DNA from: Bacteroidales bacterium
Lineage (GTDB): Bacteria > Bacteroidota > Bacteroidia > Bacteroidales > VadinHA17
Direction of reading: 5' to 3'
Assembly (NCBI GenBank): GCA_012513795.1
Contig: JAAZBN010000301.1
Coordinates: forward strand, 20,433 to 84,432
DNA: 64,000 bases
The notes under the pieces were generated by a model. It was not told where the DNA came from, made no database searches, and worked only from the letters and a program-made list of their open reading frames with translations. Numbering within the stretch: position 1 is the first letter of the stretch; the number at the start of each line of letters is the position of its first letter. This document shows positions 17,809-33,715 of the stretch, one piece after another. Position numbers and translations under genes: made by a program.

Positions 17809-18837
17809 ATGCATAGTAGTGTAAATGATATTCGAGACCTTGCTAGATTACTTGGTTTATCACCAACAACTGTATCCCGTGTTTTAAATGGGAAATCAGA
17901 AAAATACAGAATTAGTAATCTGACTGCACAAAAAGTAAGGCAAGCCGCCAAAGAATATAATTATTCCCCTAGCAAGATTGCGAGAGGCCTGAAGATGGAC
18001 AGGACAGATACGATAGGTTTAATTATTCCAGATATTTCCAATCCATTTTTTGCTGACATCGCCTACAGTATCGAAAAAGAGGCAAGATTAAAAGGTTATT
18101 CAATTATTTTATGTGACAGTGTGGATGATCTTAAAGTGGAAAAGGAGTTAATTACTTTGCTCAGAAGTCATAAGGTCGACGGTATTATAATTGCACCGGT
18201 TGGAATTAGATATGAGCACATAATTAACGTATATAATTCAGGAATACCTTTAGTCGTAATTGACAGATGTTTTCCCGGATTAGATCTTCCATCAATTACA
18301 TCAGACAATTATCAGGGAGGATATGATGCAACTAATCATTTAATATCTCTTGGTCATAAAAAAATTGCATGCATTCAGGGTATGCCTGAAAGCTTTCCGA
18401 ATAAGGAACGTTTGAGGGGTTATATAGAGGCTCATGAGAATAATAACCTTGAAATTGACAAGACTATGATCGTGGGAGATAGCTTTGTTATCGAAAACGG
18501 TTACAGGCAGACCAGGATAATATTCAGTATGGAAAATCCTCCAACTGCTGTATTTGCTTTCAGCAATCTCATCTCAATCGGTGTAATAAAAGCTCTAAAT
18601 GAAATGAGTCTTAAAATACCGGCAGATGTTTCCCTTGTATCATTTGATGAGCAGCCTTACTCAGCTTATCTGGGGACACCAATGACCACAGTCAATCAAA
18701 AGAAGAGCGAAATAGGACAATTGGCTATTGATGTTCTTTTCAAGTATATAATGGATAAGGAATACAGACAAGTAGTTTACATGAAATTGAAGACTGAACT
18801 CATTGTTCGTGATTCTGTCAGAAATCTGAGAAATTAA
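17809..18837 (+). CDS. LacI-family transcriptional regulator (PUL-1)
   Basis: N-terminal HTH DIRDLARLLGLSPTTVSRVLNG, followed by a periplasmic-binding-protein-like sugar-binding core (IGLIIPDISNPFF..., VDGIIIAP). Confidence 0.92.
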   Translation: MHSSVNDIRDLARLLGLSPTTVSRVLNGKSEKYRISNLTAQKVRQAAKEYNYSPSKIARGLKMDRTDTIGLIIPDISNPFFADIAYSIEKEARLKGYSIILCDSVDDLKVEKELITLLRSHKVDGIIIAPVGIRYEHIINVYNSGIPLVVIDRCFPGLDLPSITSDNYQGGYDATNHLISLGHKKIACIQGMPESFPNKERLRGYIEAHENNNLEIDKTMIVGDSFVIENGYRQTRIIFSMENPPTAVFAFSNLISIGVIKALNEMSLKIPADVSLVSFDEQPYSAYLGTPMTTVNQKKSEIGQLAIDVLFKYIMDKEYRQVVYMKLKTELIVRDSVRNLRN

Positions 18838-18851
18838 TTATTTATAAGATT

Positions 18852-18869
18852 TGCGCAATCGTTTACGCA
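18852..18869. promoter_or_regulatory. Candidate LacI-type operator (imperfect palindrome centred on CG), variant copy
   Basis: TGCGCAATCGTTTACGCA matches its own reverse complement at 14 of 18 positions. It is related to the 16-mer at 21292 and 23309 and lies upstream of the GH127 gene. Confidence 0.4.
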
Positions 18870-18976
18870 TCATTTCTTGTATATTTATCTCCTGACAGGG
18901 AAAGTTGATGACTTTATGTTATTTAATTAAACAATATCATTTTATGCAATTAAATGAAAATGAGTTTTTGTATATC

Positions 18977-20896
18977 ATGAAAGCAGAAAATACCCTAAAT
19001 CAATTAAGTAAATACTGCTTAATATTCTTGCTTTGCTGCACTTTTTCTTCATTTAAAGCAAATGCACAAAACCAGTGTGATGACAAAGTGAATTATATAA
19101 TGGAGGTTCCGATAATTTCAGATATAAAGGTGGAAGGTGTTATGGGGCAGGCAATTGAAAAAGGCATGAATGGTAGATTAAAGACTCTGCCCAGATGGAA
19201 TGAAGGAGAGCTTATAACCGTGTTCAGCAAGGAATCAAGACTTTCAAATACAACAAATGACTGGTATGGTGAACATGCGGGTAAATGGCTTATCACAGCT
19301 TCAAGAGCAGCGTTTCGTTCAGGAGATCGTGAATTAAAAGACCTATTATTGAAAACGGCCGAATATTTAATCAGCACGCAAGAACATAATGGCTATCTGG
19401 GAACCTATTCACTTCAAAGACGAATAACTAATCACCAGGCTTTGACACATGCCACCTCATGGGATGCATGGAATATGAGTTATTTAATATTAGGATTACT
19501 GGAGGTTTACAAGTATTTTCCTGAAGAAAGTTATCTCCTGGCATCAAAAAAAATAGGGGACCTCTTTTTAGAGAATTTCAGTGAAGGCCGGCAGAATATA
19601 ACGGAATATGGAACACGAAGAGGTATTTCTGCAACAGTTATTCTTGATCCTATGGTTGAGCTATTTAGGGAGACAGGAGATAAGCGCTATCTAGATTACT
19701 TGAATTTGGTGATCAGACAAATGGAAGAAAAGGAGGGTTTGAAGCTAATATCATCTGCATTGGATAACCGCGACCTGGAGTGGATAGGAGATGGGAAAAT
19801 CTACCAGCTCTTATGGAACATTACAGCAGTGGCAAAGTTGTACCAGGTAACTGGTAATACTGATTATTTGAGAGCTGCCGAGAATATCTGGAACAAAGTA
19901 CGTAATTATCATCTTACTATCATTGGCGGGCCATGGGGAGGGATAGGCAAACATAAAGAGTGTTTCAATAGCAGAGGATACTGGAGTCCCTACGGATATA
20001 CAGAAACTTGCAGTGTGATGTCATGGATTCAGTTTAATAGTGAAATGTTTAAACTCACGGGTAAGGCAATTTATGTTCAGGAAGTAGAGAAGTCAGTCTA
20101 CAACACACTCCTGGGCGCACAATTTCCTAACGGGATGGACTGGGCATATCATACATTTACTAACGGGGCCTTGCACTCAGCTAATTTTAACGATTGTTGT
20201 CCCTCCAGTGGAGCATTAGCCCTCGAAGAGTTGCCTTCTTTAATATATACAACTACTGATAGGGGAATCGCCTGCAATTTATATTCTGAGAGTTCTGCCA
20301 TTGTAAATATTTCCGGAGTCGGCAGAGTAAAAATAAATCAGAATACAGAATATCCTTTTGATGGGTACGTGAGAATCTCGATTCAGCCTGAGAATATAGC
20401 CAGTTTTCAGGTGCTTCTCAGAATACCTGATTGGGCAAAAGATGCAAGTGTGAAAGTAAATGGCAAGATTATAGATGCCTCAATGATTATGCAGGGTGAT
20501 TACTTAGCCGTGGAAAGGACATGGCAGGCCGGAGATATTATTGATCTTCATTTTCCCATGACATTGAAGGTTATAAGACAAATTGAAGTTTCCATGGCGC
20601 CCCAGCGAGGTGGCCCCATATACCAGGTGCAATGGTTCGCGCTTGCACGCGGTCCTTTGATATATTGCGTGAATGGCCTTATCGGTGGCATGGAAAGAGA
20701 AGAAATCTTTACCCTGCCGGAACATGACCCTGAAACTCTGTTTACATCCATACCAGCCCCAAAAACAGTAAAAGGAGAGGCATATGAATTAAGAATTCCT
20801 GATAAACCATCTTTGATATTTATCCCCTTTATTGAGTCAGGAGAAGGTGTATCTGGAACATGGCGTCTCACATGGGTACAGGAAAAAATCAGGTAG
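18977..20896 (+). CDS. GH127-like glycoside hydrolase (DUF1680; beta-L-arabinofuranosidase family), secreted
   Basis: I prefer ATG 18977 (MKAENTLNQLSKYCLIFLLCCTFSSFKANAQ signal peptide). It has the GH127-type Cys/Glu motifs ETCSVMSW and NDCCPSSGA, which I read as the Zn/catalytic-Cys region of HypBA1-type enzymes. It also has YGEHAGKWL. Confidence 0.75.
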   Translation: MKAENTLNQLSKYCLIFLLCCTFSSFKANAQNQCDDKVNYIMEVPIISDIKVEGVMGQAIEKGMNGRLKTLPRWNEGELITVFSKESRLSNTTNDWYGEHAGKWLITASRAAFRSGDRELKDLLLKTAEYLISTQEHNGYLGTYSLQRRITNHQALTHATSWDAWNMSYLILGLLEVYKYFPEESYLLASKKIGDLFLENFSEGRQNITEYGTRRGISATVILDPMVELFRETGDKRYLDYLNLVIRQMEEKEGLKLISSALDNRDLEWIGDGKIYQLLWNITAVAKLYQVTGNTDYLRAAENIWNKVRNYHLTIIGGPWGGIGKHKECFNSRGYWSPYGYTETCSVMSWIQFNSEMFKLTGKAIYVQEVEKSVYNTLLGAQFPNGMDWAYHTFTNGALHSANFNDCCPSSGALALEELPSLIYTTTDRGIACNLYSESSAIVNISGVGRVKINQNTEYPFDGYVRISIQPENIASFQVLLRIPDWAKDASVKVNGKIIDASMIMQGDYLAVERTWQAGDIIDLHFPMTLKVIRQIEVSMAPQRGGPIYQVQWFALARGPLIYCVNGLIGGMEREEIFTLPEHDPETLFTSIPAPKTVKGEAYELRIPDKPSLIFIPFIESGEGVSGTWRLTWVQEKIR

Positions 20897-21252
20897 CAGG
20901 AAGTGTCATAATATAAAACAATTGTATGGATCTTAAAACAAAATGAGATAATCAGATTTCAGAAAGACTGGTGATTGAATAACAGGGACAATCTTTATGG
21001 GATTAAGTTAATGAAAGGTGGCGTGATCCTCAGTTTTAAAAAAAATCAATACTCTACAAATCAGGTGTATGCTCAGATTCGGACATTCTGCAGGCAAGCC
21101 AGGGGCTTCCAATGAATCCCAATAATAATACGAATTCCGGGGGAGAGCCAGTGACAAAGTTTAAATTTGGTTATTATAGAGATCCGGAACTGCAATTATA
21201 GAGAATTGAAAGGCATTTTATCAGATTTGAGGGATGAGGAATAAATTAATGA

Positions 21253-21289
21253 TAAAGAAATATTTTGATAATTGAAAAATATTTCTTTA
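21253..21289. repeat. Perfect 14-bp AT-rich inverted repeat (stem-loop, 9-nt loop) immediately upstream of the operator
   Basis: TAAAGAAATATTTT (21253-21266) pairs with AAAATATTTCTTTA (21276-21289). Confidence 0.9.
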
Positions 21290-21291
21290 AT

Positions 21292-21307
21292 TGCACAAAC
21301 GTTTGAG
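21292..21307. promoter_or_regulatory. Candidate LacI-type operator TGCACAAACGTTTGAG
   Basis: Palindromic around the central CG (GCaCAAACGTTTGaGC). It lies 24 nt upstream of the transporter ATG. The identical 16-mer recurs at 23309-23324. Confidence 0.5.
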
Positions 21308-21330
21308 CTATTAATTAAATACAGTCAATT

Positions 21331-22332
21331 ATGTTTATCGTAAACTCGTATTCCTGGGCGGTGGTTCTTTGCACAATCACAATGTTATGCTGGGGTTCAT
21401 GGGCAAATACTCAGAAGCTTTCTACAAAAAAATGGGCTTTTCAGTTATTCTATTGGGATTATAGTCTTGGTGTTCTTCTTCTCTCTCTACTGTTGGCCTT
21501 TACACTGGGAAGTACAGGTGGTGAAGGCAGAAGTTTTCTTCCTGATCTTGCCCAGGCAGATTCAAATTCGATTGCAATGGCAATTTTGGGAGGAGTAATA
21601 TTCAATCTGGCTAATATTATGTTAGTAATAGCCATTGATATAGCTGGAATGGCTGTTGCATTCCCGGTAGGCATCGGACTGGCTCTGGTAATTGGAGTAA
21701 TAACAAATTATATAGGAGAACCGGTTGGCAATGCAATACTCTTGTTTACCGGTGTAGCCTTAGTAACAGTGGCAATTATCCTGGATGCCCTTGCTTATCG
21801 AAAAGTGCCATCACACGGAGGAAGAACCCCGGCAAAAGGGATATTGATTTCAATAGTTGCAGGAGTATTAATGGGCTTTTTCTATCGATTTGTTGCCTCT
21901 TCAATGGCGGTCGATTTTGCACAACCTGAGGCAGGAAAGTTAACTCCTTATACTGCATCTGTGATATTCTCGGTAGGGCTATTAGTTTCGAACTTTCTAT
22001 GGAACACAATAGCTATGTATAAACCTGTTGTGGGAGAAAAAGTAACATTCAGAGATTATTTTACACATGGTAATTTTAAACTTCACACCATCGGTATTCT
22101 GGGAGGCGCCATTTGGAGTCTTGGAATGACGTTCAATATTATTGCATCCGGGCAGGCTGGTTTTGCTATCTCTTATGGACTTGGACAGGGGGCAACACTT
22201 ATAGCTGCGTTATGGGGTGTATTTATTTGGAAGGAGTTCAAAGGAGTAAAAGGAGTCAATGGTTTGATATCTATGATGTTTATTCTCTTCATAATTGGCC
22301 TTGGATTGATTATTGCCGCCAAAGTTTATTAA
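21331..22332 (+). CDS. GRP/DMT-type sugar transporter (ribose/glucose uptake-like permease)
   Basis: 333 aa with about 10 TM helices. The N-terminus MFIVNSYSWAVVLCTITMLCWGSWANTQKL matches what I recall for Bacteroidota proteins annotated as GRP family sugar transporters. It sits directly upstream of the ribokinase. Confidence 0.65.
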   Translation: MFIVNSYSWAVVLCTITMLCWGSWANTQKLSTKKWAFQLFYWDYSLGVLLLSLLLAFTLGSTGGEGRSFLPDLAQADSNSIAMAILGGVIFNLANIMLVIAIDIAGMAVAFPVGIGLALVIGVITNYIGEPVGNAILLFTGVALVTVAIILDALAYRKVPSHGGRTPAKGILISIVAGVLMGFFYRFVASSMAVDFAQPEAGKLTPYTASVIFSVGLLVSNFLWNTIAMYKPVVGEKVTFRDYFTHGNFKLHTIGILGGAIWSLGMTFNIIASGQAGFAISYGLGQGATLIAALWGVFIWKEFKGVKGVNGLISMMFILFIIGLGLIIAAKVY

Positions 22333-22337
22333 GACAA

Positions 22338-23303
22338 ATGGATTCTGATATGAGAAAACCAAAAATTGTTGTGATAGGCAGCTCTAACACTGATATGATC
22401 TTAAAACTATCTCATATACCAGGTCCGGGAGAGACTGTATTGGGTGGTGAATTCTCAATTGCTCAGGGTGGCAAAGGAGCAAACCAGGCAGTAGCTTCAG
22501 CCCGTGCTGGTGGTGATGTTGTGTTTATTTCATGCGTTGGTGATGATCAGTTTGGCAAAAAGGCTATTGAAAAGCTGGGAGATGAAGGGATAGAGACTTC
22601 CTATATAAAAGTAATAAGAGATGTTGCCTCCGGAATTGCAATGATTAACGTCGCTGAATCCGGTGAGAATAGTATTTCAGTTGCTCCGGGGGCTAATAGT
22701 TATTTGTTACCTGCAGACATTCAGGTTGCCGAAGATGTAGTTAAAATGGCAGATGTGATTTTAATACAATTGGAAATTCCGGTTGAAACAGTTTTAAAAG
22801 CCGTGAAAATTGCCAGGAAATTCAATGTGCCTGTTATACTCAACCCTGCGCCTGCATGCGCCCTTTCAGACGAACTATTATCAAATATTGATATCATTAC
22901 CCCAAATGAAAACGAAGCTGCTGTCATAGCAGGAATGGAGCCAGTAAGTAGCAGTATTCCTGATCTGGCTGTGTGTCTTTGTAAAAAAGTGTCAGGAACT
23001 GTAATAATTACTCTAGGGAAGGATGGAGCTTATTATTGTCAAAACGATGTCGGAAGGCAAATCGATGGATATAAGGTAAATGTAGTTGATACCACAGCAG
23101 CAGGCGATACCTTTAATGGATACCTGGCAGTTTCACTTGCTTCCGGTAACAGGCTTGAGGATGCAATCAGGATAGCAAACAAGGCAGCCTCATTATCGGT
23201 AATGCGGCTGGGAGCCCAGCCTTCCATTCCATATCTTGATGAAGTGGTTGAGAAATCGACGATTGGGAGAAATTACGATACTGACCTGGGGAAAATTAAA
23301 TAA
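22338..23303 (+). CDS. rbsK: Ribokinase (PfkB family)
   Basis: I prefer ATG 22338 (MDSDMRKPKIVVIGSSNTDM); the tracked 22113 start overlaps the transporter gene. Motifs GGKGANQAVA, NEAA and DTTAAGDTFNG are typical of RbsK. Confidence 0.85.
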   Translation: MDSDMRKPKIVVIGSSNTDMILKLSHIPGPGETVLGGEFSIAQGGKGANQAVASARAGGDVVFISCVGDDQFGKKAIEKLGDEGIETSYIKVIRDVASGIAMINVAESGENSISVAPGANSYLLPADIQVAEDVVKMADVILIQLEIPVETVLKAVKIARKFNVPVILNPAPACALSDELLSNIDIITPNENEAAVIAGMEPVSSSIPDLAVCLCKKVSGTVIITLGKDGAYYCQNDVGRQIDGYKVNVVDTTAAGDTFNGYLAVSLASGNRLEDAIRIANKAASLSVMRLGAQPSIPYLDEVVEKSTIGRNYDTDLGKIK

Positions 23304-23308
23304 ATATA

Positions 23309-23324
23309 TGCACAAACGTTTGAG
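23309..23324. promoter_or_regulatory. Candidate LacI-type operator TGCACAAACGTTTGAG (second identical copy)
   Basis: Exact repeat of 21292-21307, 86 nt upstream of the SusC-like start. Confidence 0.5.
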
Positions 23325-23409
23325 GATATTAATCTCGCATAAGCATCAATGTTTCTATATATGTTATCAACCAATTGTATGTAAATAATCATCTAACCAA
23401 AATTAACCA

Positions 23410-26400
23410 ATGAAAAGCAATCAGTTAAATAGGGGTCGGACTCCTATTTGGGGAAATCTGGTGATGTGTGTGCGGCAGTCGGTAATGCTCCTGCTTCTGA
23501 GCTTAGCAACATTTACCCTGCAAGGCATATCGCATGTCAATGACTCTGAAAAAAATAACGAGAGTCAAATTGACAATTATCTCAAACATAATGATCATCG
23601 GTTTGGAGATGATCTGACTATTATCGGTTCAGTAATCAAAATGACAAAGACCGGGAGCCTGCAATCAAAAGATATAACGGGTAAGGTAACCGCGGAAACC
23701 GGTCAACCTCTAGCCGGTGTTACTGTTTTTGCAAAAGGGACTACCTCAGGTACATTTACTGATAGTGATGGCAGATACAAGCTGTCAATTCCATCAGGTA
23801 CGATGGCATTGGTCTTTTCCTTTGTCGGAATGAAAACAGTTGAGGAGCCGATTGGAAACAGGACAGTTATTGATATGGTGCTTTATGCAGAGGAGATTGG
23901 CCTTGATGAAGTGGTTGTTGTTGGTTACGGAGAGCAAAAAAAGGTAAACCTGACCGGGTCCGTGTCTACAGTACAAAAGGAAGACCTAGTAAAAGTTCCT
24001 TCGGCAAATATTTCTGAAATACTGACAGGTAAGGCTCCAGGTCTGTTAACCAAGCAAAGTACAGGTGTTCCGGGACAGGACTTTACCACTTTGAGTATCA
24101 GGGGATATGATGACCCATTAGTCCTGGTGGATGGAATAGAAACATCCTGGTCGCGATTAGATCCAACTGAGATAGAGTCTATTAGTGTACTGAAGGACGC
24201 TGCTGCAGCTGTTTATGGTAGCAGGGCCGGAAACGGAGTAGTTCTTATTACTACCAAAAGAGGAGCAGGGACAAAGCCTTCAATAAATTATTCCAGCAAT
24301 TTCACATTTCAGAATCCAACAGTACTGCCAGAGTATATCTCTTCATGGAAATATGCTGAAATGTTGCGCGAAGGCGAGTTTAACAGCGGAATTCCTTACA
24401 CATATACCGAGGAGGAGATACAATTATTCAAAGATGGGACAGATCCGGATTACATAAATGAGGATTGGTATAGTGCAATTTTTAGAAACTGGGCCCTCAT
24501 GCAATCTCATAACCTTGGGGTATCAGGAGGAAATGAAAGGGTAAAATTCTTTTTATCCGTCGGATTCCTGGATCAGCAAAGTACTTTCAAATCGGGTGAC
24601 CTGAAATTTGGAAGATACAATGCACGGTCTAATGTAGATGCTCAAATATCGGACAGGTTGTCGGTTTCAATAGATCTTTCATACCGGAATGAACAACGTT
24701 ATGAGCCGCAGGCAACATTTCAGAACAGTGATCCCCTGACAAATATTTGGACCGATTTAAAACTTGCACTTCCCGTTTGGCCTTCCAGACTGCCTGATCC
24801 GAATATAGGTGGCGCTTATTCAGGGTTTACTACAAGGAGTCCTCTGGCACAGACATATAGCGATCTTACAGGCTCCATAGATAACAGACAACAGTACTGG
24901 ACTGGGCGCATCAGCCTGAACTATAAAATTCCCGGAATTAAAGGATTGGAATTTAATGCTGCACTTAATTATACCGGTAACAATACATATGTTAAAAATC
25001 AGGATAAACCATTTGAGGTATTCAGTTATGACTATGCCAATGACCTGTATGTAAGTTGGGGTATTAACGGAGAAAATGCACTTGCCGAAGAGTTTACCAG
25101 TTATACCCAGTTATACCCATTAATTTCATTAAAATATGAGAATACATTTGGGAATCACGCAATTCAGGGTCTTCTTCTGGCAGAAGGAATCAATACGGAC
25201 TATAATTATCTTTCTGGAGGACGAGTAGACCTTTTATCATTGGAAATACCATATATGTTTGCAGGTTCGCCTGAGAATATAACAAATAACAGTGGTGCTG
25301 TTGAGACCGGACGGGTCAGTTATGTTGGAAGGGCTAACTATAGTTTTAAAGGGAAATATCTGGTTGAAGGTACTTTCAGATATGACGCTAGTCATAAATT
25401 CCCCGAGGAGACAAGATGGGGATTTTTCCCGAGTGTGTCAGCCGGATGGAGGATCTCGGAAGAATCTTTTGTGAAGGACAATATTTCATGGATTGATAAT
25501 TTAAAGATCAGAGCTTCCTACAGTAAAGCAGGTGATGACAATGTTAGTGCTTTTAAATACCTTACAGGCTATGAAATATTAAGTGATCCTACACAGGTTT
25601 ATGTTTTCGGGAGTAATGTTTACAGGTTAATCAGGTCAACAGGTCTGCCCAATCCTGACATTACATGGCTTGATATGACAAGCTATAATATAGGCTTGGA
25701 TAGCAGGTTCCTTGATGGACTCATAGGGGTAGAATTCGATCTTTTCTATCGCTTAACTGAGAACATTTTCGGTCAACCGCTGGAGGCTTATCCGTCTACT
25801 TTTGGTGCAACTCTTCCACAGCTTAATTTGAACTCTACTGATGACAGAGGATTTGAACTAACTCTTAGTCACAGAAATAAAATTGGAGGAGATTTTACCT
25901 ACAGTATGGCAGGAACGGTAAGTCTGGCAAGAGAAAAATACAAAGATTGGTCAGAAGTTCTTTATGATGATCCGGATGAAATTAGAATTTATAAGAGAAC
26001 CGGTAACTATACTAACCGATGGATAGGTTATAAAACCGACGGATTGTTCATGAGCCAGCAGGAAATTGATGAGTGTGATGTCAATCAGGATGAGGCTAAT
26101 AATACAACATTGGTACCTGGAGATATACGCTATGTTGACCTTAACGGTGATAAGATAATAGACTGGCGAGATCAGGACCAGATTGGATATGGTACATTTC
26201 CAGATCTTGTATATGCTTTGGATATGCAAGCTGATTACAAGGGGATTGGCGTCACCATCCTTTTTCAGGGAGCATCAATGTTCAACATTAATATTGATGA
26301 CACCTATAGAGGCCCGCTGACAAACTGGGGGCCTCCACTTGAATTTCATTATAAATATCGTTGGCAGCCTGACCCGGCAAACCCCGATATAAATATCAAT

Positions 26401-26712
26401 CCGGATGCCAGACTCCCGGCTCTTGTAGGTGATGGTACCGGAACTCGCACTCATAACAGAAAAACTTCGGACTTTTGGCTACAGGATGCAACATATCTGA
26501 GGTTGAAGAACCTGAATATAAGCTACACTATTCCTCATGAGTTGACCAAAAAAGTAGGCATTCAGGACTTGCGGTTTTTCGTTGCCGGAAGCAATTTGTT
26601 AACAATCAGTAAACTTGGTATTTACAAGAATTCACAGGACCCTGAAGGAGGTGGTCTGAAGTACTATCCTCCGGTTAAAACGGTTTCCTTCGGATTGAAT
26701 GTAACATTATAA
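23410..26712 (+). CDS. SusC/RagA-family TonB-dependent outer membrane transporter (PUL-1)
   Basis: 1100 aa. Carboxypeptidase-regulatory-like domain (ITGKVTAETGQPLAGVTVFAKGTTSGTFTDSDGRYKL). Plug region (VVVVGYGEQKKVNLTGSV). A long beta-barrel follows, and a susD-like gene comes next. Confidence 0.93.
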   Translation: MKSNQLNRGRTPIWGNLVMCVRQSVMLLLLSLATFTLQGISHVNDSEKNNESQIDNYLKHNDHRFGDDLTIIGSVIKMTKTGSLQSKDITGKVTAETGQPLAGVTVFAKGTTSGTFTDSDGRYKLSIPSGTMALVFSFVGMKTVEEPIGNRTVIDMVLYAEEIGLDEVVVVGYGEQKKVNLTGSVSTVQKEDLVKVPSANISEILTGKAPGLLTKQSTGVPGQDFTTLSIRGYDDPLVLVDGIETSWSRLDPTEIESISVLKDAAAAVYGSRAGNGVVLITTKRGAGTKPSINYSSNFTFQNPTVLPEYISSWKYAEMLREGEFNSGIPYTYTEEEIQLFKDGTDPDYINEDWYSAIFRNWALMQSHNLGVSGGNERVKFFLSVGFLDQQSTFKSGDLKFGRYNARSNVDAQISDRLSVSIDLSYRNEQRYEPQATFQNSDPLTNIWTDLKLALPVWPSRLPDPNIGGAYSGFTTRSPLAQTYSDLTGSIDNRQQYWTGRISLNYKIPGIKGLEFNAALNYTGNNTYVKNQDKPFEVFSYDYANDLYVSWGINGENALAEEFTSYTQLYPLISLKYENTFGNHAIQGLLLAEGINTDYNYLSGGRVDLLSLEIPYMFAGSPENITNNSGAVETGRVSYVGRANYSFKGKYLVEGTFRYDASHKFPEETRWGFFPSVSAGWRISEESFVKDNISWIDNLKIRASYSKAGDDNVSAFKYLTGYEILSDPTQVYVFGSNVYRLIRSTGLPNPDITWLDMTSYNIGLDSRFLDGLIGVEFDLFYRLTENIFGQPLEAYPSTFGATLPQLNLNSTDDRGFELTLSHRNKIGGDFTYSMAGTVSLAREKYKDWSEVLYDDPDEIRIYKRTGNYTNRWIGYKTDGLFMSQQEIDECDVNQDEANNTTLVPGDIRYVDLNGDKIIDWRDQDQIGYGTFPDLVYALDMQADYKGIGVTILFQGASMFNINIDDTYRGPLTNWGPPLEFHYKYRWQPDPANPDININPDARLPALVGDGTGTRTHNRKTSDFWLQDATYLRLKNLNISYTIPHELTKKVGIQDLRFFVAGSNLLTISKLGIYKNSQDPEGGGLKYYPPVKTVSFGLNVTL

Positions 26713-26723: not shown

Positions 26724-28478
26724 ATGAAAAAGTCAAAGTATTTAGTCCTTATTTTTCTCATAATATTAACAGGATGTGAGAATTTTCTGGACAAAGAGCC
26801 ACTTGATATTATTTCTGACGCCCTGGTGTGGGAAGATGAAAACCTGATTAATTCCTATTTAGCTGACCTGTACTACAGAACAGATTTCATGGAGAGAAAA
26901 GGTAATGATGATTGTGTATCTCTTTGTATGATAGCTTCAATGGGTGGGGAAGGAAGATCATATGGGGCGCATCACCAACCATATATAGCCTCTACCAATG
27001 TAATAACAGCGGCTGGTCCAAATGCTCAGCTTGACTATTGGAATTACAAAAATATCAGAGATTGTAACTTCTTTATAGAAAAGATGGACAACAATCCCAA
27101 TTTTGATCAGGCATACAATAAACAGCGAATTGCTGAAGTAAGGTTCCTGAGAGCATATATGTACTTCGAAATGGTAAAAAGATTTGGAGGAGTACCAATT
27201 ATCGTTAAGGCTCAGGCGATGGATGCCACGGAGGAAGAGCTATATCTCCCGCGTAACTCCGAAAAGGAGGTTTATGATTTTATCATTGCTGAGATGGACA
27301 CACTTTCTCAGGAATTGCCAAATGAATATTCGGCTGAGGATAAAGGCAGGCCGACTAAATGGGCGGCATTGGCTCTCAAAAGTCGTGCTGCCCTGTATGC
27401 TGCCAGCATCGCAAAATATGGTCAGGTTCAGTTAGATGGACTACTTGGTTTCCAGTCATCAGATGTAGAATACTATGCGGACCTATCATATGATGCATCT
27501 AAAGCAATCATCAATAATGGCATCCATTTCTTGTATGAGAAACAAGCTGACCCGGTATTAAATTATCAGAATCTTTTCCTAGATGAATCGTCAGACAACA
27601 AGGAAGTGATCATGTCAGAAGTGTATGATTATGCAAAGAACCGGGCACATGCCTTCTCATTACGTACTATGCCACATGATTTCTCCGGGACATGGGCCTC
27701 AATGTATTATTTGTATGACTTTGTTGAAAGGTTTGAGTTTGCAGATGGCAGTCCGGGTAATTCCATTTCAAGGTCACAACTTACAGCAACAGGCTCAGAA
27801 TGGACACCTGCGGAACTTTGGGAGAATCGTGATGCACGTTTCAGGGCAACCGTCTTTTACCCGGAGAGTCCCTGGCAGGGTGGGAAGGTGTTATTTCATT
27901 CTTCTACAATACGGGGTGGAGTTACATATACTTCCGGCTTTGCCGAAGACGGCTGGCCATATAAAGCTTCAACCAGAAACACTACCAAGACCGGATTTAT
28001 GGTCCGAAAGCGTTGTAATGAAAGCATGAAGATGCCAACTGATGTTTTCAACGACCAGACTGATGTAATAATTTTCAGACTCGGAGAGATCTATCTGAAT
28101 CTTGCTGAAGCCGCATATTATCTCAATTTTACAGATGAAGCACTTACAACGCTCAATCGCCTTAGAGAACGGGCAAATATGCCGCCAAAAACAACCATTG
28201 ATGAAGCTACAATTCAGAATGAGAGACTTGTCGAGCTTAGCTGGGAGAATCACAGTTACTGGGATATAAGAAGATGGCGAATTGCCAAGCAACTACTTGA
28301 TGGAGTACGGACCCAGGGATTGGTTTTCACTTATAATTATGATACAAAGAAGTATAGAATCAGGTTGATTGCGGCTGAGGGTGTGGCAAGGATTTTTCAG
28401 GACAGAAATTACTACCTGCCTCTGGGTGTTAGCAGAGTTGCCGAGAACCCCAATTTCGTGGAAAATCCTGATTATTAG
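26724..28478 (+). CDS. SusD/RagB-family surface glycan-binding lipoprotein (PUL-1)
   Basis: Lipobox ILTGC. NFLDKEPLD..., RFLRAYMYFEMVKRFGGVPI and IFRLGEIYLNLAEA are SusD hallmarks. Confidence 0.93.
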   Translation: MKKSKYLVLIFLIILTGCENFLDKEPLDIISDALVWEDENLINSYLADLYYRTDFMERKGNDDCVSLCMIASMGGEGRSYGAHHQPYIASTNVITAAGPNAQLDYWNYKNIRDCNFFIEKMDNNPNFDQAYNKQRIAEVRFLRAYMYFEMVKRFGGVPIIVKAQAMDATEEELYLPRNSEKEVYDFIIAEMDTLSQELPNEYSAEDKGRPTKWAALALKSRAALYAASIAKYGQVQLDGLLGFQSSDVEYYADLSYDASKAIINNGIHFLYEKQADPVLNYQNLFLDESSDNKEVIMSEVYDYAKNRAHAFSLRTMPHDFSGTWASMYYLYDFVERFEFADGSPGNSISRSQLTATGSEWTPAELWENRDARFRATVFYPESPWQGGKVLFHSSTIRGGVTYTSGFAEDGWPYKASTRNTTKTGFMVRKRCNESMKMPTDVFNDQTDVIIFRLGEIYLNLAEAAYYLNFTDEALTTLNRLRERANMPPKTTIDEATIQNERLVELSWENHSYWDIRRWRIAKQLLDGVRTQGLVFTYNYDTKKYRIRLIAAEGVARIFQDRNYYLPLGVSRVAENPNFVENPDY

Positions 28479-28496
28479 ACTGAGTAATTCCGGACA

Positions 28497-28563: not shown

Positions 28564-28648
28564 GAACATGATGTCTTTGAGCACAATAACACAGTTTATG
28601 AAGAATCTTTTAACTTGAATAAATTATCAATCTCATTAAGCAATAATT

Positions 28649-30217
28649 ATGAAAATACTTAAATCAGCTTTTATTGTACTGACAGTCTTAGTACTCTGGC
28701 CGAGCACAGGATGTACGGGAAAAAAGAAGGATGTGTCTCAGCTCCCTTCAAAAGTGACAATGACCAAGGATTTGTTGATGGACAAGATAAAAGGTGGCTG
28801 GGCAGGCCAAACACTTGGAGTGACTTACGGGGGACCAACAGAATTCAGGTACCGGAGCAGGATCATTCCTGATAGCATTGAAATTCCCTGGCCTGTCAGC
28901 GGATACTGTAAATCATGGTTTGAGAGCAAACAAAAGGCTGGACTATATGATGATATTTATATGGACCTGACTTTTGTGGATGTGATAGAGAAATATGGCA
29001 TTGATGCACCGGCTGACAGCTTTGCGCTTGCATTTGCCAGGGCCCCTTACCCTCTCTGGCATGCAAACCAGGCTGCCAGGTATAATATACTTAACGGAAT
29101 CATGCCCCCGAAGTCAGGATACTGGAAATTCAATCCACATGCTGATGATATCGATTTTCAAATCGAATCTGATTTTGCCGGACTGATGTCACCCGGAATG
29201 CCTGTTGCTGCATCCGAGGTAACGGATCGGATCGGACATATAATGAACTATGGCGATGGTTGGTATGGAGGAGTGTATGTGGCAGCAATGTATTCCCTGG
29301 CGTTCCTGACAGATGACATCGACCTGATAGTCCGCGAAGCCTTGAAGATGCTTCCACAGGAGAGCAATTTCCATAAATTTATGAGTGATGTTATTAATTG
29401 GAGTAAAGTATATACTGACTGGAAACGTACCTGGGAGGAAATTGAGAAAAAATATGGAGATGATAAAACATGCCCTCAGGGTTATGGTGATCCGTTTAAT
29501 ATTGAAGCAACAATGAACTGTGCATATATTCTGGTAGGTTTACTTTATGGTGATGGAGATATGGGTAGGACCGTAGATATATCCACTCGTTGCGGCGCAG
29601 ACTCGGATTGTAACCCCTCAAATGCGGCAGGCATTCTTGGTACAGCAATGGGCTATAGCAAAATTCCGGATTATTGGCTGAATAATGTGAAAGAAGTTGA
29701 GGACATTACTTTCCCCTATACCAGCCTTTCACTGAATCATACCTATGAGCTTAGTCTTAAGCATGCCCTGGAGGCTGTTCAACGCAACGGCGGAAAAATA
29801 AGGGGAGAAAAGGTGACCATTTCCTGTCAGGTTCCTGAACCTGTAAGATATGAGAAGAGTTTCGAAGGAATTACTCCTGTTAAGAAGGAAAAAATCGATT
29901 TGCCATTAACGGAAAAAGGATTTGAATATTCATTCGAGGGTACAGGGGTCCTTATATCAGCTGAATTTCCCGGAAAAAGACAGTCAACAGGTGAATATAT
30001 TGCATACGTTGAAGTATTTGTTGATGGTAAACCTGCTGAGGTTGTTAAGTTCCCGGCTGATTTCATGGTTAGAAAGCTTGATCTTTACTGGAACTTTGAT
30101 CTGCCATCAGGAGATCATCTAATTGAACTTAAACTTCAGAATCCGGATAAGGAGCAGGTTATTGACCTGAACTATGTTGTCATCTATAACAATTTGGATA
30201 AGGACATTGCACAATGA
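28649..30217 (+). CDS. ADP-ribosylglycohydrolase-family protein, lipoprotein, with an extra C-terminal beta-rich domain
   Basis: Lipobox WPSTGC. ARH-like N-terminal motif DKIKGGWAGQTLGVTYGGPTEF and metal-site-like GADSDCNPSNAAGILG. About 150 residues beyond a normal ARH fold (VPEPVRYEKSFEG...LNYVVIYNN). The stop overlaps the next ATG (ATGA at 30214-30217). Confidence 0.75.
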   Translation: MKILKSAFIVLTVLVLWPSTGCTGKKKDVSQLPSKVTMTKDLLMDKIKGGWAGQTLGVTYGGPTEFRYRSRIIPDSIEIPWPVSGYCKSWFESKQKAGLYDDIYMDLTFVDVIEKYGIDAPADSFALAFARAPYPLWHANQAARYNILNGIMPPKSGYWKFNPHADDIDFQIESDFAGLMSPGMPVAASEVTDRIGHIMNYGDGWYGGVYVAAMYSLAFLTDDIDLIVREALKMLPQESNFHKFMSDVINWSKVYTDWKRTWEEIEKKYGDDKTCPQGYGDPFNIEATMNCAYILVGLLYGDGDMGRTVDISTRCGADSDCNPSNAAGILGTAMGYSKIPDYWLNNVKEVEDITFPYTSLSLNHTYELSLKHALEAVQRNGGKIRGEKVTISCQVPEPVRYEKSFEGITPVKKEKIDLPLTEKGFEYSFEGTGVLISAEFPGKRQSTGEYIAYVEVFVDGKPAEVVKFPADFMVRKLDLYWNFDLPSGDHLIELKLQNPDKEQVIDLNYVVIYNNLDKDIAQ

Positions 30218-32079
30218 AGTTTCTTTCATCCTCAGCTTCGTTATGTTTCCTGAGTATTGCATCCGGAATATCTGCTGCAGGTTTCAGCGAGCTCAGCATT
30301 GATAAAAAGACTGGTGGAGCAGCGAAACCGAATGTAATACTGGTTATTACTGATGATCAGGGGTATGGAGAGCTTTCATGTCACGGAAATCCAGTGTTGA
30401 AGACACCTGCCCTTGATCAATTTCATAGTGTAAGTGTCAGGTTTACAGATTATCATGTGGCTCCTATGAGCGCACCAACAAGGGGACAGTTGCTAACGGG
30501 ACTTGATGCAGCCAGGAACGGAGCTGTGAATGTTAGCAGTGGACGGTCATTGTTAAGGACTGAACTTCCGACCATGGCCGATATATTTTCTGATAATGGT
30601 TACAATACTGGCATTTTCGGAAAATGGCATCTCGGGGATAACTATCCTTTCAGGCCGGAAGACAGAGGTTTTATGGAGTCAGTCTGGTTCCCATCCTCTC
30701 ATATTGGGTCGTTGCCCGACTTCTGGGGGAATAATTACAACGATGATGTATTCATACATAACGGCAAACGGGAGGAATATAAAGGCTATTGTACAGATGT
30801 CTTTTTTGATGAGGCAATTGACTTTATGAATACATCCTCAGGTAAGGGGGCTCCATTTTTTGTATACCTTGCAACAAATACTCCGCACAGTCCATTCATA
30901 GCGCCTCCTGGGGATCAAGAAGTAATCAGTGAGCTAATAGCTGCATCCGAATTTTCTGATTTGGAGCCTGCGATTAAGGCAAGGCTTATTTCGTACCTGG
31001 CAATGGTTCGAAATATTGATACAAATTTTGGAAAACTGATTAGTTTTCTGACGGATAATGGGCTACTTGAAAATACGATTCTGATTTTTACAACAGACAA
31101 TGGCAGCACACAGGGTCCGGACTATTACAATGCTAATATGAGAGGACGAAAGGCCGAACTTTATGAAGGTGGGCACAGAGTCCCATTGTTCATCAGCTGG
31201 CCAGCAGGAATAATAAATGCTCCGCGTGACATCGACGGGCTAACACAGGCCCAGGATATACTTCCTACACTTATTGATCTATGCTGCCTGAAGAAGCCTA
31301 AATCAACAAAATTTGACGGATCGAGTTTGGCGAATGTATTAACAGGGAAGAAGGATGTCGACCGTGATAGAATGATAGTAATTAATTATAGTCGGATGCC
31401 GATGGGGTTTGAATATCCATCTCCTTCCGGACCCACATTAATTACGCCTAAAAGAGCTGCAGTATTATGGAAGCAATGGCGTTTGATTGAAAATCTGGAA
31501 TTGTATGACCTTAAGTCAGATCCTTTGCAGCAGACCAATGTGATTGAGAAATTCCCTGAAATCAGGGATAAAATGCAAGCATATTTATACAAGTGGTGGG
31601 AAGGTGTTAAAGATATCGCAAATGAACCTCAGCGGATTGTGATTGGAAATGATAACGAGAATCCAATTATGCTGACAGCATGCGAATGGATGGATGTATT
31701 TGTTGATCAGCAGGCTCAGGTAAGACGTGGAGTGAGGAGAAACAGTTACTGGAATTTAATGGTGGACAGGGCAGGAGAATACGAGATTGAACTCAGGAGG
31801 TGGCCTCGTGAGACAGGCCTTACTCTTGCTGGCAGAGATTCCGGAGGAAATGCTATTCCTGTCTCATCAGCCCGGATACTTATAACCGGAGCGGTGGAGA
31901 GAGAAGTTGAAAGACCTATGGCTTTTGAGGGGTTACAGAAAAAAGTCCGGCCTGAGGATGTAGCCGTTATATTCAGGGTATCCCTTTTAGAAGGCCCTGT
32001 ATCTCTTCACACCTGGTTTGACGATAAGGATAACAATGTCTTGAGCGGAGCGTATTATGTTTATATTAAACGACTGTAA
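30214..32079 (+). CDS. S1-family sulfatase, Ser-type, with a C-terminal accessory domain
   Basis: Signal peptide. PNVILVITDDQGYGE. Maturation motif SAPTRGQLLTG, with the Ser codon AGC at 30469-30471. Also GKWHLG and TTDNGS. Confidence 0.9.
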   Translation: MKFLSSSASLCFLSIASGISAAGFSELSIDKKTGGAAKPNVILVITDDQGYGELSCHGNPVLKTPALDQFHSVSVRFTDYHVAPMSAPTRGQLLTGLDAARNGAVNVSSGRSLLRTELPTMADIFSDNGYNTGIFGKWHLGDNYPFRPEDRGFMESVWFPSSHIGSLPDFWGNNYNDDVFIHNGKREEYKGYCTDVFFDEAIDFMNTSSGKGAPFFVYLATNTPHSPFIAPPGDQEVISELIAASEFSDLEPAIKARLISYLAMVRNIDTNFGKLISFLTDNGLLENTILIFTTDNGSTQGPDYYNANMRGRKAELYEGGHRVPLFISWPAGIINAPRDIDGLTQAQDILPTLIDLCCLKKPKSTKFDGSSLANVLTGKKDVDRDRMIVINYSRMPMGFEYPSPSGPTLITPKRAAVLWKQWRLIENLELYDLKSDPLQQTNVIEKFPEIRDKMQAYLYKWWEGVKDIANEPQRIVIGNDNENPIMLTACEWMDVFVDQQAQVRRGVRRNSYWNLMVDRAGEYEIELRRWPRETGLTLAGRDSGGNAIPVSSARILITGAVEREVERPMAFEGLQKKVRPEDVAVIFRVSLLEGPVSLHTWFDDKDNNVLSGAYYVYIKRL

Positions 32080-32116
32080 AACAGATAGATATAATAACAA
32101 ATAAAGAACGTCTTGT

Positions 32117-33715
32117 ATGAAAAAGGATAAATCTCTTTTGGTCAAGATTGGGCTGGGTATTTTAGGTACTGCGCCATTAATGATAACAGAAGGTTGTTAT
32201 GGAAACAAAGAGATTAAACCCAATGTTATCTTTTTTCTTGTTGATGATCTTGGATGGACTGATCTGGGCTGTTACGGCAGCAGTTTCTATGAAACTCCCA
32301 ATATAGATAAATTCGCAAGTGAAAATGTCCGGTTTACTTCTGCATATGCTGCCTGCCATGTCTCTTCTCCAACAAGGGCAAGCATATTAACCGGGAAATA
32401 TCCTGCTACGATTAATATGACAGATTGGTTACCCGGACGTAAGGATTTCCCATTCCAACGACTTGCCAACGTTGAAGTTAACCAACATTTACCATACGGT
32501 GAGATTACGATAGCAGAGGCATTAAAAGCTGATGGTTATGCGACGGCGATTTTTGGCAAGTGGCATCTGGGAGAGGATCCATCCAGCCCAATGAAACATG
32601 GTTTTGATGTACATGTGCCGAATTGGGCTAAAGGATGGCCAAACGGGGGCTACTATCATCCCTTTAAACTTGAAGGCTTGGAGAGCAGGGAAGGTGATTA
32701 TCTGACAGACCGCCTTACAGATGAGGCGCTTGATTGGATTGAGTCGAACAAGGGAAAGCCCTTTTTCCTGTATTTATCACATTATGCTGTCCATGACCCG
32801 ATAAATGGACGCCCGGACCTGGTCAAAAAATATCAGGAAAAGTTGGGAAATATATTAAAAAAGGAGGGAGAGCCATTTCTTTTAGAGGGCAACCCTGACT
32901 CCGGTAATCCGGTCTCTATTGAGGAGGCACAAAGGATGCTCAGCGAAAAAGAATATGAAGGTTACAGCCAGCTGCCACAGCAAATGGTGAAAGTTAAGCA
33001 ATTTCAGGATAATGTTCATTTTGCTGCTATGGTTGAAAGCATGGATGAGAGTTTTGGAAGGGTTATGGGAAAACTACAGGAGTTGGGACTGGAAAACAAT
33101 ACCATTGTTATATTCTTTTCTGATAATGGCGGGATGGCTGCTGCCAACTTTGGCAATCCGCAAAGGGTGGTGACCAGCGAACAGTTGGACAGGGCATTCA
33201 GTACGGCAAATCTGCCACTGAGAGGAGCGAAGGGGTGGCTTTATGAGGGTGGAATACGTGTACCCTTAATAGTGAAATGGCCCGGCAGCAAGCTGAAGGA
33301 GACCGTATGCGATGTACCAGTAATAAGTGTGGACTTTTACGCAACAATTTTAGATATGCTGGGGGGGAAAGTACCTGAATATCACAAAGTGGATGGAGTA
33401 AGTCTGGTCCCGTTGTTATTGGGTGAAGGAAGCCTTGAAAGAGATGCCATCTATTGGCACTTTCCTCATTACAGCAATCACGGGATGCAGAGTCCGGGTG
33501 GAGCAATCCGATGGGGTGACTATAAGTTGATAGAATATTATGAAAACGGCACTGTGCAGTTATTCAATCTGAAAAATGATATCGGAGAGCAACATGAAAT
33601 TTCGACAGTAAATCCGGAAATAACATTAAAATTAAAGAATGAGCTCCATGATTGGAGGGCCCGTATAAATGCTCATATGATGGAGCTCAACCCGAATTAT
33701 CAGCCGGGCATATGA
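32117..33715 (+). CDS. S1-family sulfatase, Ser-type
   Basis: PNVIFFLVDDLGWTD. Motif SSPTRASILTGKYP. Also GKWHLG and FSDNGG. Confidence 0.9.
   Translation: MKKDKSLLVKIGLGILGTAPLMITEGCYGNKEIKPNVIFFLVDDLGWTDLGCYGSSFYETPNIDKFASENVRFTSAYAACHVSSPTRASILTGKYPATINMTDWLPGRKDFPFQRLANVEVNQHLPYGEITIAEALKADGYATAIFGKWHLGEDPSSPMKHGFDVHVPNWAKGWPNGGYYHPFKLEGLESREGDYLTDRLTDEALDWIESNKGKPFFLYLSHYAVHDPINGRPDLVKKYQEKLGNILKKEGEPFLLEGNPDSGNPVSIEEAQRMLSEKEYEGYSQLPQQMVKVKQFQDNVHFAAMVESMDESFGRVMGKLQELGLENNTIVIFFSDNGGMAAANFGNPQRVVTSEQLDRAFSTANLPLRGAKGWLYEGGIRVPLIVKWPGSKLKETVCDVPVISVDFYATILDMLGGKVPEYHKVDGVSLVPLLLGEGSLERDAIYWHFPHYSNHGMQSPGGAIRWGDYKLIEYYENGTVQLFNLKNDIGEQHEISTVNPEITLKLKNELHDWRARINAHMMELNPNYQPGI

Follow-up and report, generated by a model that had tools for sequence, protein, structure and literature searches.

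The window (the whole stretch of 64,000 nucleotides that was analysed) originates from an uncultured anaerobic Bacteroidales bacterium that is represented by metagenomes alone. It contains a locus, PUL-1, of nine genes at positions 17809-33715, all on the + strand, in the order LacI, GH127-like glycosidase, DMT/GRP-type permease, ribokinase, SusC, SusD, ARH-fold lipoprotein and two S1 sulfatases. A sequence-only reading had proposed this co-directional order, which was borne out by the open reading frames, the Pfam/NCBIfam profile matches and the Ser-type motifs of the sulfatases. The genes and the candidate operators are the following:

17809..18837, + strand: LacI1, LacI-family repressor and probable PUL-1 regulator (PF00356 plus Peripla_BP, PF00532/PF13377)
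18852..18869, no strand: degenerate palindromic candidate operator O1, TGCGCAATCGTTTACGCA, ahead of GH127 (direct sequence reading)
18905..20896, + strand: GH127-like glycosidase, probably periplasmic (PF07944, 2.6e-36, 125.9 bits; PF20736, 8.9e-23, 80.7 bits)
21293..21308, no strand: candidate operator O2, GCACAAACGTTTGAGC, with the permease start 23 bp downstream
21331..22332, + strand: DMT-superfamily (ureide-permease/GRP-like) sugar permease, probable ribose importer (PF07168, 7e-23; PF06800 (GRP), 3e-5)
22338..23303, + strand: ribokinase (TIGR02152, 357.9 bits, cutoff 299.65; NF008353, 345, cutoff 341)
23310..23325, no strand: candidate operator O3, GCACAAACGTTTGAGG, 85 bp upstream of SusC
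23410..26712, + strand: SusC-like TonB-dependent transporter (TIGR04056, 862 bits)
26724..28478, + strand: SusD-like surface lipoprotein (PF07980, PF14322)
28649..30217, + strand: ARH-fold lipoprotein, probable ribose-releasing hydrolase (PF03747, 9.9e-33, residues 49-341; C-terminal beta-sandwich)
30214..32079, + strand: S1 sulfatase 1, Ser-type (SAPTR), extended by an additional C-terminal domain (PF00884, 4.5e-50)
32117..33715, + strand: S1 sulfatase 2, Ser-type (SSPTR), S1_16-like (match to 9fo1, 8e-141, nearly full length)

The genes fall into three predicted transcription units, specifically GH127, permease-ribokinase, and SusC-SusD-ARH-sulfatase 1-sulfatase 2. One type of palindromic candidate operator, with the core ACAAACGTTTG, precedes each of GH127, permease-ribokinase and SusC, and all three positions are kept in two relative loci, L174 and L010. 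The equivalents of O1 upstream of GH127 are TGCGCAATCGTTTATGC in L174 and TGCGCAAACGTTTATTC in L010, a site identical to O2 precedes the permease in both, and SusC is preceded by a conserved O3 in L010, L174, L009, L170, L172, L173 and L175. An operator scan gave four strand-matches (the sites at 21293 and 23310) against 0.37 expected, a result reached by none of 100 shuffles. The best NCBIfam matches of LacI1, which is 88% identical to its counterpart in L174, are RbsR, PurR and CytR, every one of them under cutoff. The PUL-1 genes are predicted to form a regulon under this common operator.

The grouping of the genes exceeds chance, since they share an operator, their order is identical in L174 and L010 (67-92% amino-acid identity), and both borders are marked: the left one by a drop in GC3 from 0.55-0.68 to 0.30-0.46, the right one by a second LacI gene, whose palindrome differs. 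Recent horizontal transfer was considered as the source of the GC3 step and rejected, because L174 has the same junction with the same step, and there the flank genes have diverged as much as the locus genes (78-92%). No RNA family matches were found in an Rfam scan of positions 17000-35500, and scans for sigma-70 promoters and terminators, with models that are ill-suited to Bacteroidota, remained at chance level.

The ribokinase open reading frame as listed (22113-23303) is over-extended, with the actual start at 22338 or 22350; the kinase exceeds the equivalog cutoff for ribokinase (TIGR02152). The permease shares 55-90% identity with the one encoded beside ribokinase and ARH genes in 45 of 83 and 52 of 80 sampled loci, including 55-61% with those of the RK-ARH-NH-permease clusters of Parabacteroides and Bacteroides faecichinchillae. 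Pfam detects no STN domain in the SusC protein. The initial filing of the locus as rus-like (ribose-utilisation) is supported by the SusC/D pair, a ribokinase above its equivalog cutoff, a permease family associated with ribokinases in many Bacteroidota and the LacI regulator.

The seventh gene encodes the protein that we consider the most interesting of the locus. Its PF03747 domain scores 114.5 bits (threshold 26.2) and is followed by a C-terminal beta-sandwich of about 180 aa, while its lipobox ends in STGC, with a Cys22 that is almost invariant across the family. A search of PDB sequences found no relative of the single protein, and a profile of the family found weak C-terminal matches alone (Tri1 (6dre), 0.003; ARH3, about 1). 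The structure model (pLDDT 79.7) matched DraG and ARH3 in Foldseek with a probability of 1.00, at about 13% identity and target-normalised TM-scores of about 0.6. In the alignment, GADSDC lies opposite GGDTDT of ARH3, the C-terminal metal motif D-x-D-[T/S/C]. Residues E65, D102, D318 and D320 are invariant in the family and D101 is nearly so; judged by motif position and invariance only, E65 and D101-D102 would be the equivalents of E41 and D77-D78 in ARH3. As the metal and acid motifs appear to be kept, the lipoprotein is probably a ribose-releasing hydrolase. A literature search brought up no biochemical study of the family, no assayed member and no paper on a ribofuranosidase, and a search combining ADP-ribosylglycohydrolase with PUL, sulfatase or Bacteroides found a sole relevant paper (Glowacki et al., bioRxiv 10.1101/574913).

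The ARH-fold family is large in Bacteroidota, with thousands of members including those of human-gut Parabacteroides, Alistipes and Bacteroides, and across the phylum it is genomically tied to ribokinase and permease. A ribokinase lies at most 10 kb from the ARH family gene in 49 of 83 genome loci and in 60 of 80 metagenome loci (30 of 36 among the metagenome loci of 15 kb or more), and ribokinase and the same permease both lie beside it in about 60-80% of the sampled loci. The commonest order is RK-ARH-(NH)-permease, and a fusion of the ARH-fold with a nucleoside hydrolase was found as well, in addition to fusions with GH92, GH84, GH43-like, lectin-like and T9SS sorting domains. Sulfatases occur in seven of the nine loci of the closest ARH clade and are replaced by esterases in two close-clade loci; when metagenomes were scanned with the ARH protein by itself, no more than two close relatives were found among 80 loci. 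We searched the sulfatase-linked clade for clade-specific sulfate-binding residues and found conservative substitutions only, which gives no evidence of an altered specificity.

The characterised ARH enzymes cleave ADP-ribosyl linkages (ADP-ribose conjugates), not glycans. The ribose that the lipoprotein scavenges could accordingly come from ADP-ribosylated proteins or from small molecules derived from ADP-ribose or NAD, with the GH127-like enzyme and the sulfatases as unrelated neighbours. Such a role would fit the use of ADP-ribose by B. thetaiotaomicron, which is rus-dependent (bioRxiv 10.1101/574913), the nucleotide pyrophosphatase gene that follows the L010 locus, and the many ARH loci that are simple RK-ARH-NH-permease operons without SusC/D. 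We regard it as very unlikely for PUL-1, where the shared operator spans both GH127 and the SusC-to-sulfatase unit and the stop of the ARH gene and the start of the sulfatase 1 gene overlap by 4 bp. In addition, the combination of ARH, GH127 and sulfatase recurs in unrelated contexts, and the fusion partners of the family (apart from the nucleoside hydrolase) are typical of glycan-active enzymes.

The true start of the GH127-like gene is likely at 18977, which would yield a signal peptide. Both the catalytic and the middle GH127 domain are above the Pfam thresholds. In the alignment with HypBA1 (3wre), HKECF, TETC and DCCP lie opposite GESF, GETC and ACCP, and the protein thus keeps the acid/base Glu, the E-x-C motif and the C-C Zn/nucleophile motif of HypBA1 (3wkw). 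It is nevertheless distant from the solved GH127 structures (3wkw, 4qjy, 6ex6 and 5mqo; 1e-17 to 1e-31) and belongs to a separate large clade with members of 630-650 aa. In three inspected loci this clade adjoins sulfatases, ARH or LacI-SusC/D, and L092, L175 and L176 combine it with ARH and sulfatases. The GH127 activities on record are those of beta-L-arabinofuranosidase and aceric acid hydrolase, neither of which acts on ribose. The family also includes 3,6-anhydro-D-galactosidases from a carrageenan locus, which are not ribose-active either.

Both sulfatases have complete formylglycine motifs (C/S-x-P-x-R) and PF00884 scores of 171 and 192 bits, respectively. No characterised protein is close to sulfatase 1 (best PDB match only 6e-46); its orthologues follow ARH in L091 (81%) and L170 (a 623-aa sulfatase). 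The nearest solved structure to sulfatase 2 is 9fo1, an S1_16 kappa-carrageenan sulfatase, which is Cys-type, whereas sulfatase 2 is Ser-type and has about 50 inserted residues (244-293). Orthologues of sulfatase 2 (61-81% identity) accompany ARH in L091, L010, L090 and L009, and a GH20 gene adjoins the orthologue in L010, L009 and L170. The S1_16 enzymes BT3057 and BT3796 of B. thetaiotaomicron are 4S-Gal/GalNAc sulfatases. Being S1_16-like, sulfatase 2 would probably act on a 4-sulfated Gal/GalNAc-type residue, and this likeness together with GH20 in the relatives makes it more likely that the sulfate sits on a hexose or hexosamine than on the pentose.

These same observations can be turned into a different proposal, in which PUL-1 targets a sulfated galactan or a host- or GAG-type glycan with Gal/GalNAc-4-sulfate, the GH127-like enzyme is an anhydro-galactosidase or another non-ribose glycosidase, and ribokinase and permease serve as a sensing or salvage hub only. 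The close match of sulfatase 2 to a carrageenan sulfatase, the activity of the B. thetaiotaomicron S1_16 enzymes, the neighbouring GH20 genes and the anhydro-galactosidases within GH127 all point in this direction. However, PUL-1 encodes no GH16, GH82, GH150 or lyase, and it is ribokinase, permease and ARH that form the conserved core while sulfatases and GH20 vary, up to the substitution of sulfatases by esterases in the two close-clade members. We therefore consider a galactan or GAG target unlikely.

The locus next to PUL-1 encodes six GH172 enzymes, a GH116 enzyme, an L-fucose/D-arabinose isomerase, four sulfatases and a second SusC/D pair. In its predicted gene content it resembles a D-arabinofuranose locus: PUL42 of Dysgonomonas gadei acts on D-arabinan via GH172 and fucose isomerase, and GH116 is a known exo-beta-D-arabinofuranosidase family. 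Several GH172 genes and the isomerase within a SusC/D locus are common to both, but the neighbour locus differs from PUL42 in its four sulfatases and in adjoining a ribose locus. No DUF4185/GH183 endo-arabinanase was found in the neighbour locus within the window.

This proximity raises the question of whether PUL-1 is autonomous. It might be the ribose arm of a compositional island of at least 46 kb (from 17.8 to beyond 63.2 kb), in which both loci jointly dismantle one sulfated glycan rich in D-pentofuranose. The adjacency is kept in L091 (permease-RK-ARH-Sulf1-Sulf2-LacI2-GH172-FucI-DUF6786-MFS, with no SusC/D between), L090 and L093 have ARH homologues in the midst of GH172, GH116 and sulfatase genes, and the two loci in the window have a low GC3 in common as well as related SusC (39% identity) and SusD proteins (38%). 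PUL42 also provides a precedent for the combined action of GH172 and fucose isomerase on D-arabinan. On the other hand, the two LacI proteins share just 32% identity and each has a palindrome of its own, the second locus contains no copy of the PUL-1 operator, and the PUL-1-type loci L010, L170 and L172 have no second-locus genes within the flanks examined. A single joint system is rather unlikely in our view. In the reading that we prefer, the substrate of PUL-1 is probably a relative of whatever the neighbouring D-arabinofuranose-type locus targets.

Taken together, we propose that PUL-1 is a LacI-controlled member of the rus class of PULs, with a mechanism to which, as a whole, we assign a probability of roughly 55%. 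SusC/D would import an oligosaccharide or small glycoconjugate, from which the two formylglycine sulfatases would strip sulfate esters in the periplasm. Terminal furanosyl residues would then be trimmed by two enzymes, the metal-dependent ARH-fold hydrolase, which most likely frees D-ribose, and the GH127-like enzyme, whose active site is of the Cys/Zn furanosidase type. The permease would import the ribose, the ribokinase would phosphorylate it for the pentose-phosphate pathway, and ribose or ribose phosphate may lift the repression by LacI. Ribose is thus probably released by the exported ARH-fold enzyme from a sugar chain that carries sulfate, and the substrate in nature is probably a sulfated heteroglycan of microbes or algae that bears ribofuranose as side groups. 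No endo-acting enzyme is encoded within PUL-1, and no sulfated ribofuranose-containing glycan was found in a literature search.

The sequence-only reading had also suggested a sulfated, ribofuranose- or pentofuranose-containing substrate, of a class that it did not know to have been defined for any PUL. The idea of such a substrate is strengthened rather than shown by the comparative context, namely the link of ARH to ribokinase and permease, the link of the closest ARH clade to sulfatases, the GH127 clade with ARH and sulfatases, and the D-arabinofuranose-type neighbour with its four sulfatases; the pentose as carrier of the sulfate has become the less likely part. The novelty holds for the substrate, as none is defined for such loci, but not for the gene content, as described below. 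More speculative still, and offered tentatively, is the possibility that the ARH-fold lipoprotein founds an unrecognised family of metal-dependent glycoside hydrolases, most likely D-ribofuranosidases, which would be the core releasing enzymes of ribose scavenging in Bacteroidota, with the two-locus island degrading undescribed sulfated glycans that contain D-ribofuranose and D-arabinofuranose. PUL-1 and its relatives single out the ARH-fold lipoprotein family as a concrete biochemical target; assaying it might establish a new family of glycosidases and show what rus systems live on. The variants linked to sulfatases and arabinofuranosidases suggest an overlooked class of nutrients, the sulfated pentofuranose-bearing glycans of microbes or algae.

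Compared with the characterised ARH enzymes, the lipoprotein has the fold, the C-terminal metal motif and probably an N-terminal Glu in common with ARH3, ARH1 and DraG (PF03747), but it is exported, has the additional C-terminal beta-sandwich, and belongs to a family whose genes, unlike theirs, sit between ribokinase and sugar permease or within PULs. As a gene cluster, PUL-1 varies a published theme in a way that was to be expected. Seventy rus configurations have been described, with variants that contain LacI (the second commonest rus regulator), ADP-ribosylglycohydrolases and aryl sulfatases (Glowacki et al., bioRxiv 10.1101/574913), and PUL-1 is therefore a further variant of a described kind. 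We should note that RusGH of B. thetaiotaomicron was considered as a member of the ARH-fold family, an assignment that was dropped because the paper keeps GH* and ADP-RGH as separate categories. The published systems are ribose-induced and variable in enzyme content, and the rus hydrolases and SusC/D of B. thetaiotaomicron are dispensable on all substrates tested (bioRxiv 10.1101/574913), so that the prototype, too, is without a defined polymer and no rus-type locus has been assigned a natural one. PUL-1 has the adjacent SusC/SusD, the single ribokinase and the linked LacI regulator by which rus loci are recognised. It has SusC/D, a ribokinase, a dedicated permease (likened to RusT at the family level, DMT/GRP-like) and a regulator in common with the rus locus of B. 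thetaiotaomicron (BT2802-BT2809), which has two ribokinases and RusR where PUL-1 has one ribokinase and LacI. The hydrolases differ as well, with RusGH (unassigned family) and RusNH in B. thetaiotaomicron versus the GH127-like enzyme, the ARH-fold lipoprotein and two sulfatases in PUL-1. Both loci thus combine a core for monosaccharide assimilation with a variable set of hydrolases.

PUL-1 (17809-33715) is an uninterrupted series of genes on the forward strand, and the functions that the sequence-only reading had given to all nine of them were borne out by Pfam and NCBIfam.

Features of PUL-1 and of the locus downstream
17809-18837, +, LacI repressor (Pfam/NCBIfam)
18905-20896, +, ORF of a GH127-like protein, both GH127 domains
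21331-22332, +, permease of the DMT superfamily; top match Ureide_permease, weaker match to GRP 'Sugar_transport'
22113-23303, +, ribokinase (ORF as listed); TIGR02152, 357.9 bits against a cutoff of 299.65
23410-26712, +, SusC (Pfam/NCBIfam)
26724-28478, +, SusD (Pfam/NCBIfam)
28649-30217, +, protein of 522 aa with an ADP-ribosylglycohydrolase (ARH) domain (Pfam/NCBIfam)
30214-32079, +, S1 sulfatase 1, Ser-type formylglycine motif SAPTR
32117-33715, +, S1 sulfatase 2, Ser-type formylglycine motif SSPTR
34051 to beyond 63199, second locus: LacI, six GH172 (DUF2961), L-fucose/D-arabinose isomerase, DUF6786, MFS transporter, SusC/D, GH116 and four sulfatases

The ribokinase ORF is over-extended, its real start being 22338 or 22350 (as called in the homologous loci L001 and L003). 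The start of sulfatase 1 overlaps the ARH stop codon by 4 bp, and the Ser-type motif is the usual one among sulfatases of anaerobic Bacteroidales. The same ARH protein, in a matching flanking gene order, occurs in six independent metagenome assemblies; no isolate was found to encode the identical protein, and its annotated relatives are MAGs labelled Bacteroidales.

PUL-1 is predicted to form a LacI regulon of its own, with three transcription units, since its palindrome occurs at three conserved sites and the second locus has both another palindrome and another LacI. The palindrome, with core ACAAACGTTTG, is found 23 bp upstream of the permease gene (21293-21308) and 85 bp upstream of SusC (23310-23325), giving four strand matches against 0.37 expected (none of 100 shuffles reaches four), and a degenerate copy, TGCGCAATCGTTTACGCA, lies between LacI and GH127 (18852-18869). 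All three sites are kept at equivalent positions in the homologous loci L010 and L174, and similar palindromes precede SusC in five others (L009, L170, L172, L173, L175). The second locus carries another candidate operator, TTAATCGATTAA, at about 35106, and its LacI is only 32% identical to that of PUL-1. The boundaries first drawn around PUL-1 are thus right, with the shared palindromes inside and another system next door. The 434-bp non-coding gap between GH127 and permease (20897-21330) contains no ORF of at least 50 aa and no Rfam match; the corresponding gap is shorter in L174 (176 bp) and longer in L010 (533 bp), with conservation limited to the operator at the 3' end.

The junction at 17578-17808 is marked by a sharp composition step: GC3 is 0.55-0.68 in the upstream genes (734-17577) versus 0.30-0.46 in all genes of both loci (17809-63199). 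L174 has an identical step at the matching LytTR/LacI junction, with flank and locus genes equally diverged (78-92% amino-acid identity), and the L010 locus is also flanked by a composition step. Neither an integrase nor a tRNA was found at the border. The low-GC3 region looks like an old, stable island. The upstream genes encode a protein with a Rieske domain and one of 855 aa with multihaem cytochrome c motifs and TPR repeats (229-3301). Next come a tricorn-like protease, a set of TolC/HlyD/MacB efflux proteins and a two-component pair (LytS/LytTR); all of these are unrelated to PUL-1.

Of the leads, the ARH-fold lipoproteins are the most valuable, as they may constitute a new family of glycosidases. 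The window protein has a lipobox (…STGC) whose Cys22 is nearly invariant among homologues. A PDB sequence search detected no relative; the AlphaFold model (pLDDT 79.7, pTM 0.82) comprises an all-helical domain (residues 35-380) and a beta-sandwich (383-515), and Foldseek gave DraG, ARH3, ARH1 and Tri1 as matches with a probability of 1.00 and a sequence identity of about 13%. In the family profile an invariant GADSDC (D318, D320, C321) aligns to GGDTDT of ARH3, a motif that contains the metal ligands D314, D316 and T317, and GGPTEF (E65) aligns to the GxxLEF motif of Tri1. Among 30 homologues, down to 53% identity, E65, D102, D106, D318 and D320 are invariant and D101 nearly so. From fold matches, motif alignments and invariant residues, we infer a catalytically competent, metal-dependent hydrolase.

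Matches to the family form more than 8000 clusters at 90% identity (at 50% identity and E < 1e-30 the number is 428), and species-representative genomes hold at least 591 such loci, nearly all in Bacteroidota, including Parabacteroides, Alistipes, Bacteroides, Muribaculaceae, Spirosoma and Chitinophagaceae. In a Pirellulales MAG (Planctomycetota; L036, 10001-16784), two ARH-fold copies stand on either side of a sulfatase, which suggests a cross-phylum spread of the ARH-sulfatase pairing. Neighbours were counted in the fetched flanks of 83 genome and 80 metagenome loci, which were searched by tblastn with the window proteins. A ribokinase lies within 10 kb of the ARH gene in 49/83 and 60/80 loci, respectively (30 of the 36 metagenome loci of at least 15 kb), a PUL-1-type permease is nearby in 45/83 and 52/80, and a nucleoside hydrolase in 15/83 and 29/80. 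The prevailing order is (SusC…)-ribokinase-ARH-(nucleoside hydrolase)-permease. One protein, P0111 (L008, 10001-12487), fuses ARH to a nucleoside hydrolase (PF01156); other partners are GH92, GH84, GH43-like, endonuclease/exonuclease-phosphatase, lectin-like, PKD and T9SS sorting domains (P0242, P0244, P0278, P0251, P0292), and some fusions could be gene-calling artefacts of metagenomes. Given the ribokinase and permease neighbours and the fusions, the family appears to behave as a secreted glycan-active enzyme feeding ribose assimilation; a role as protein de-ADP-ribosylase does not fit this context or these fusions. From the genomic context, we infer that the ARH-fold enzyme would release ribose. 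A literature search found no assay of a family member.

The GH127-like protein retains two features of HypBA1, the acid/base Glu and the zinc-nucleophile site (Glu/Cys/Cys-Cys), and matches characterised members at only 1e-17 to 1e-31. Members of its clade are flanked by two ARH paralogues within a ribokinase…permease cluster (L092), lie between LacI-SusC-SusD and three sulfatases (L175), or occur in the order GH127-DUF4838-ARH-sulfatase-ARH (L176); the gene combination picked out by the sequence-only reading is therefore a recurrent module, not an accident of this genome.

Sulfatases are present in seven of nine inspected loci with an ARH protein at least 62% identical to that of the window (window, L091, L010, L090, L170, L172, L009), and esterases replace them in the other two (L171, L173). 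Only conservative substitutions set this close clade apart from the rest of the family. The chemistry performed by ARH is probably unchanged, and its accessory enzymes probably handle differing decorations. Over almost the full length of sulfatase 2, the best alignment (8e-141) is with 9fo1, an S1_16 kappa-carrageenan sulfatase, which has Cys at the formylglycine position whereas sulfatase 2 has Ser; relative to 9fo1, sulfatase 2 also carries an insertion of about 50 residues (244-293; window 32846-32995). In B. thetaiotaomicron, S1_16 enzymes cleave the 4-sulfate of Gal/GalNAc, and a GH20 hexosaminidase adjoins the orthologue of sulfatase 2 in three loci (L010, L009, L170). S1_16 likeness and neighbouring GH20 make sulfate on a hexose or hexosamine more likely than on the pentose. 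For sulfatase 1, a PDB search gave no close characterised relative. The sulfated, pentofuranose-bearing substrate proposed by the sequence-only reading gains support from context and is plausible, and the sulfate is probably not carried by the pentose. Two sulfatase and ARH loci each encode a 282-aa protein without Pfam match (L170, 9094-9942, directly upstream of ARH; L176, 1623-2471), which is absent from the window.

The second locus is similar to PUL42, the Dysgonomonas gadei locus for D-arabinan, whose signature is GH172 enzymes plus a 'fucose isomerase', but has sulfatases in addition; exo-beta-D-arabinofuranosidases are found within GH116, and no GH183 endo-arabinanase was seen within the window. 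Both loci are still adjacent in L091 (there, ribokinase and ARH have no intervening SusC/D), ARH homologues lie amid GH172, GH116 and sulfatase genes in L090 and L093, and SusC and SusD of the two loci are 39% and 38% identical. Together with the PUL42-type content, this supports related substrates. Separate regulators and PUL-1-type loci lacking the neighbour within the fetched flanks (L010, L170, L172) argue that PUL-1 could work alone.

The ribose utilisation system (rus) was defined in B. thetaiotaomicron by Glowacki et al. (bioRxiv 10.1101/574913), who described 70 configurations across Bacteroidetes. In the prototype, hydrolases and SusC/D were dispensable on every substrate tested and the polymer was not identified. 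In nearly all rus, SusC/D and one or two ribokinases are accompanied by a RusT-type permease and by a regulator, LacI being the second commonest; the enzymes are 'exceptionally variable', and ADP-ribosylglycohydrolases and aryl sulfatases are named among them (bioRxiv 10.1101/574913). PUL-1 shows the features of rus membership that can be read from sequence, and its filing as rus-like was correct, with SusC/D, ribokinase and LacI as in rus and a candidate RusT-type permease. By gene content, PUL-1 is thus assigned to the rus kind already described, and the novelty of the locus is modest.
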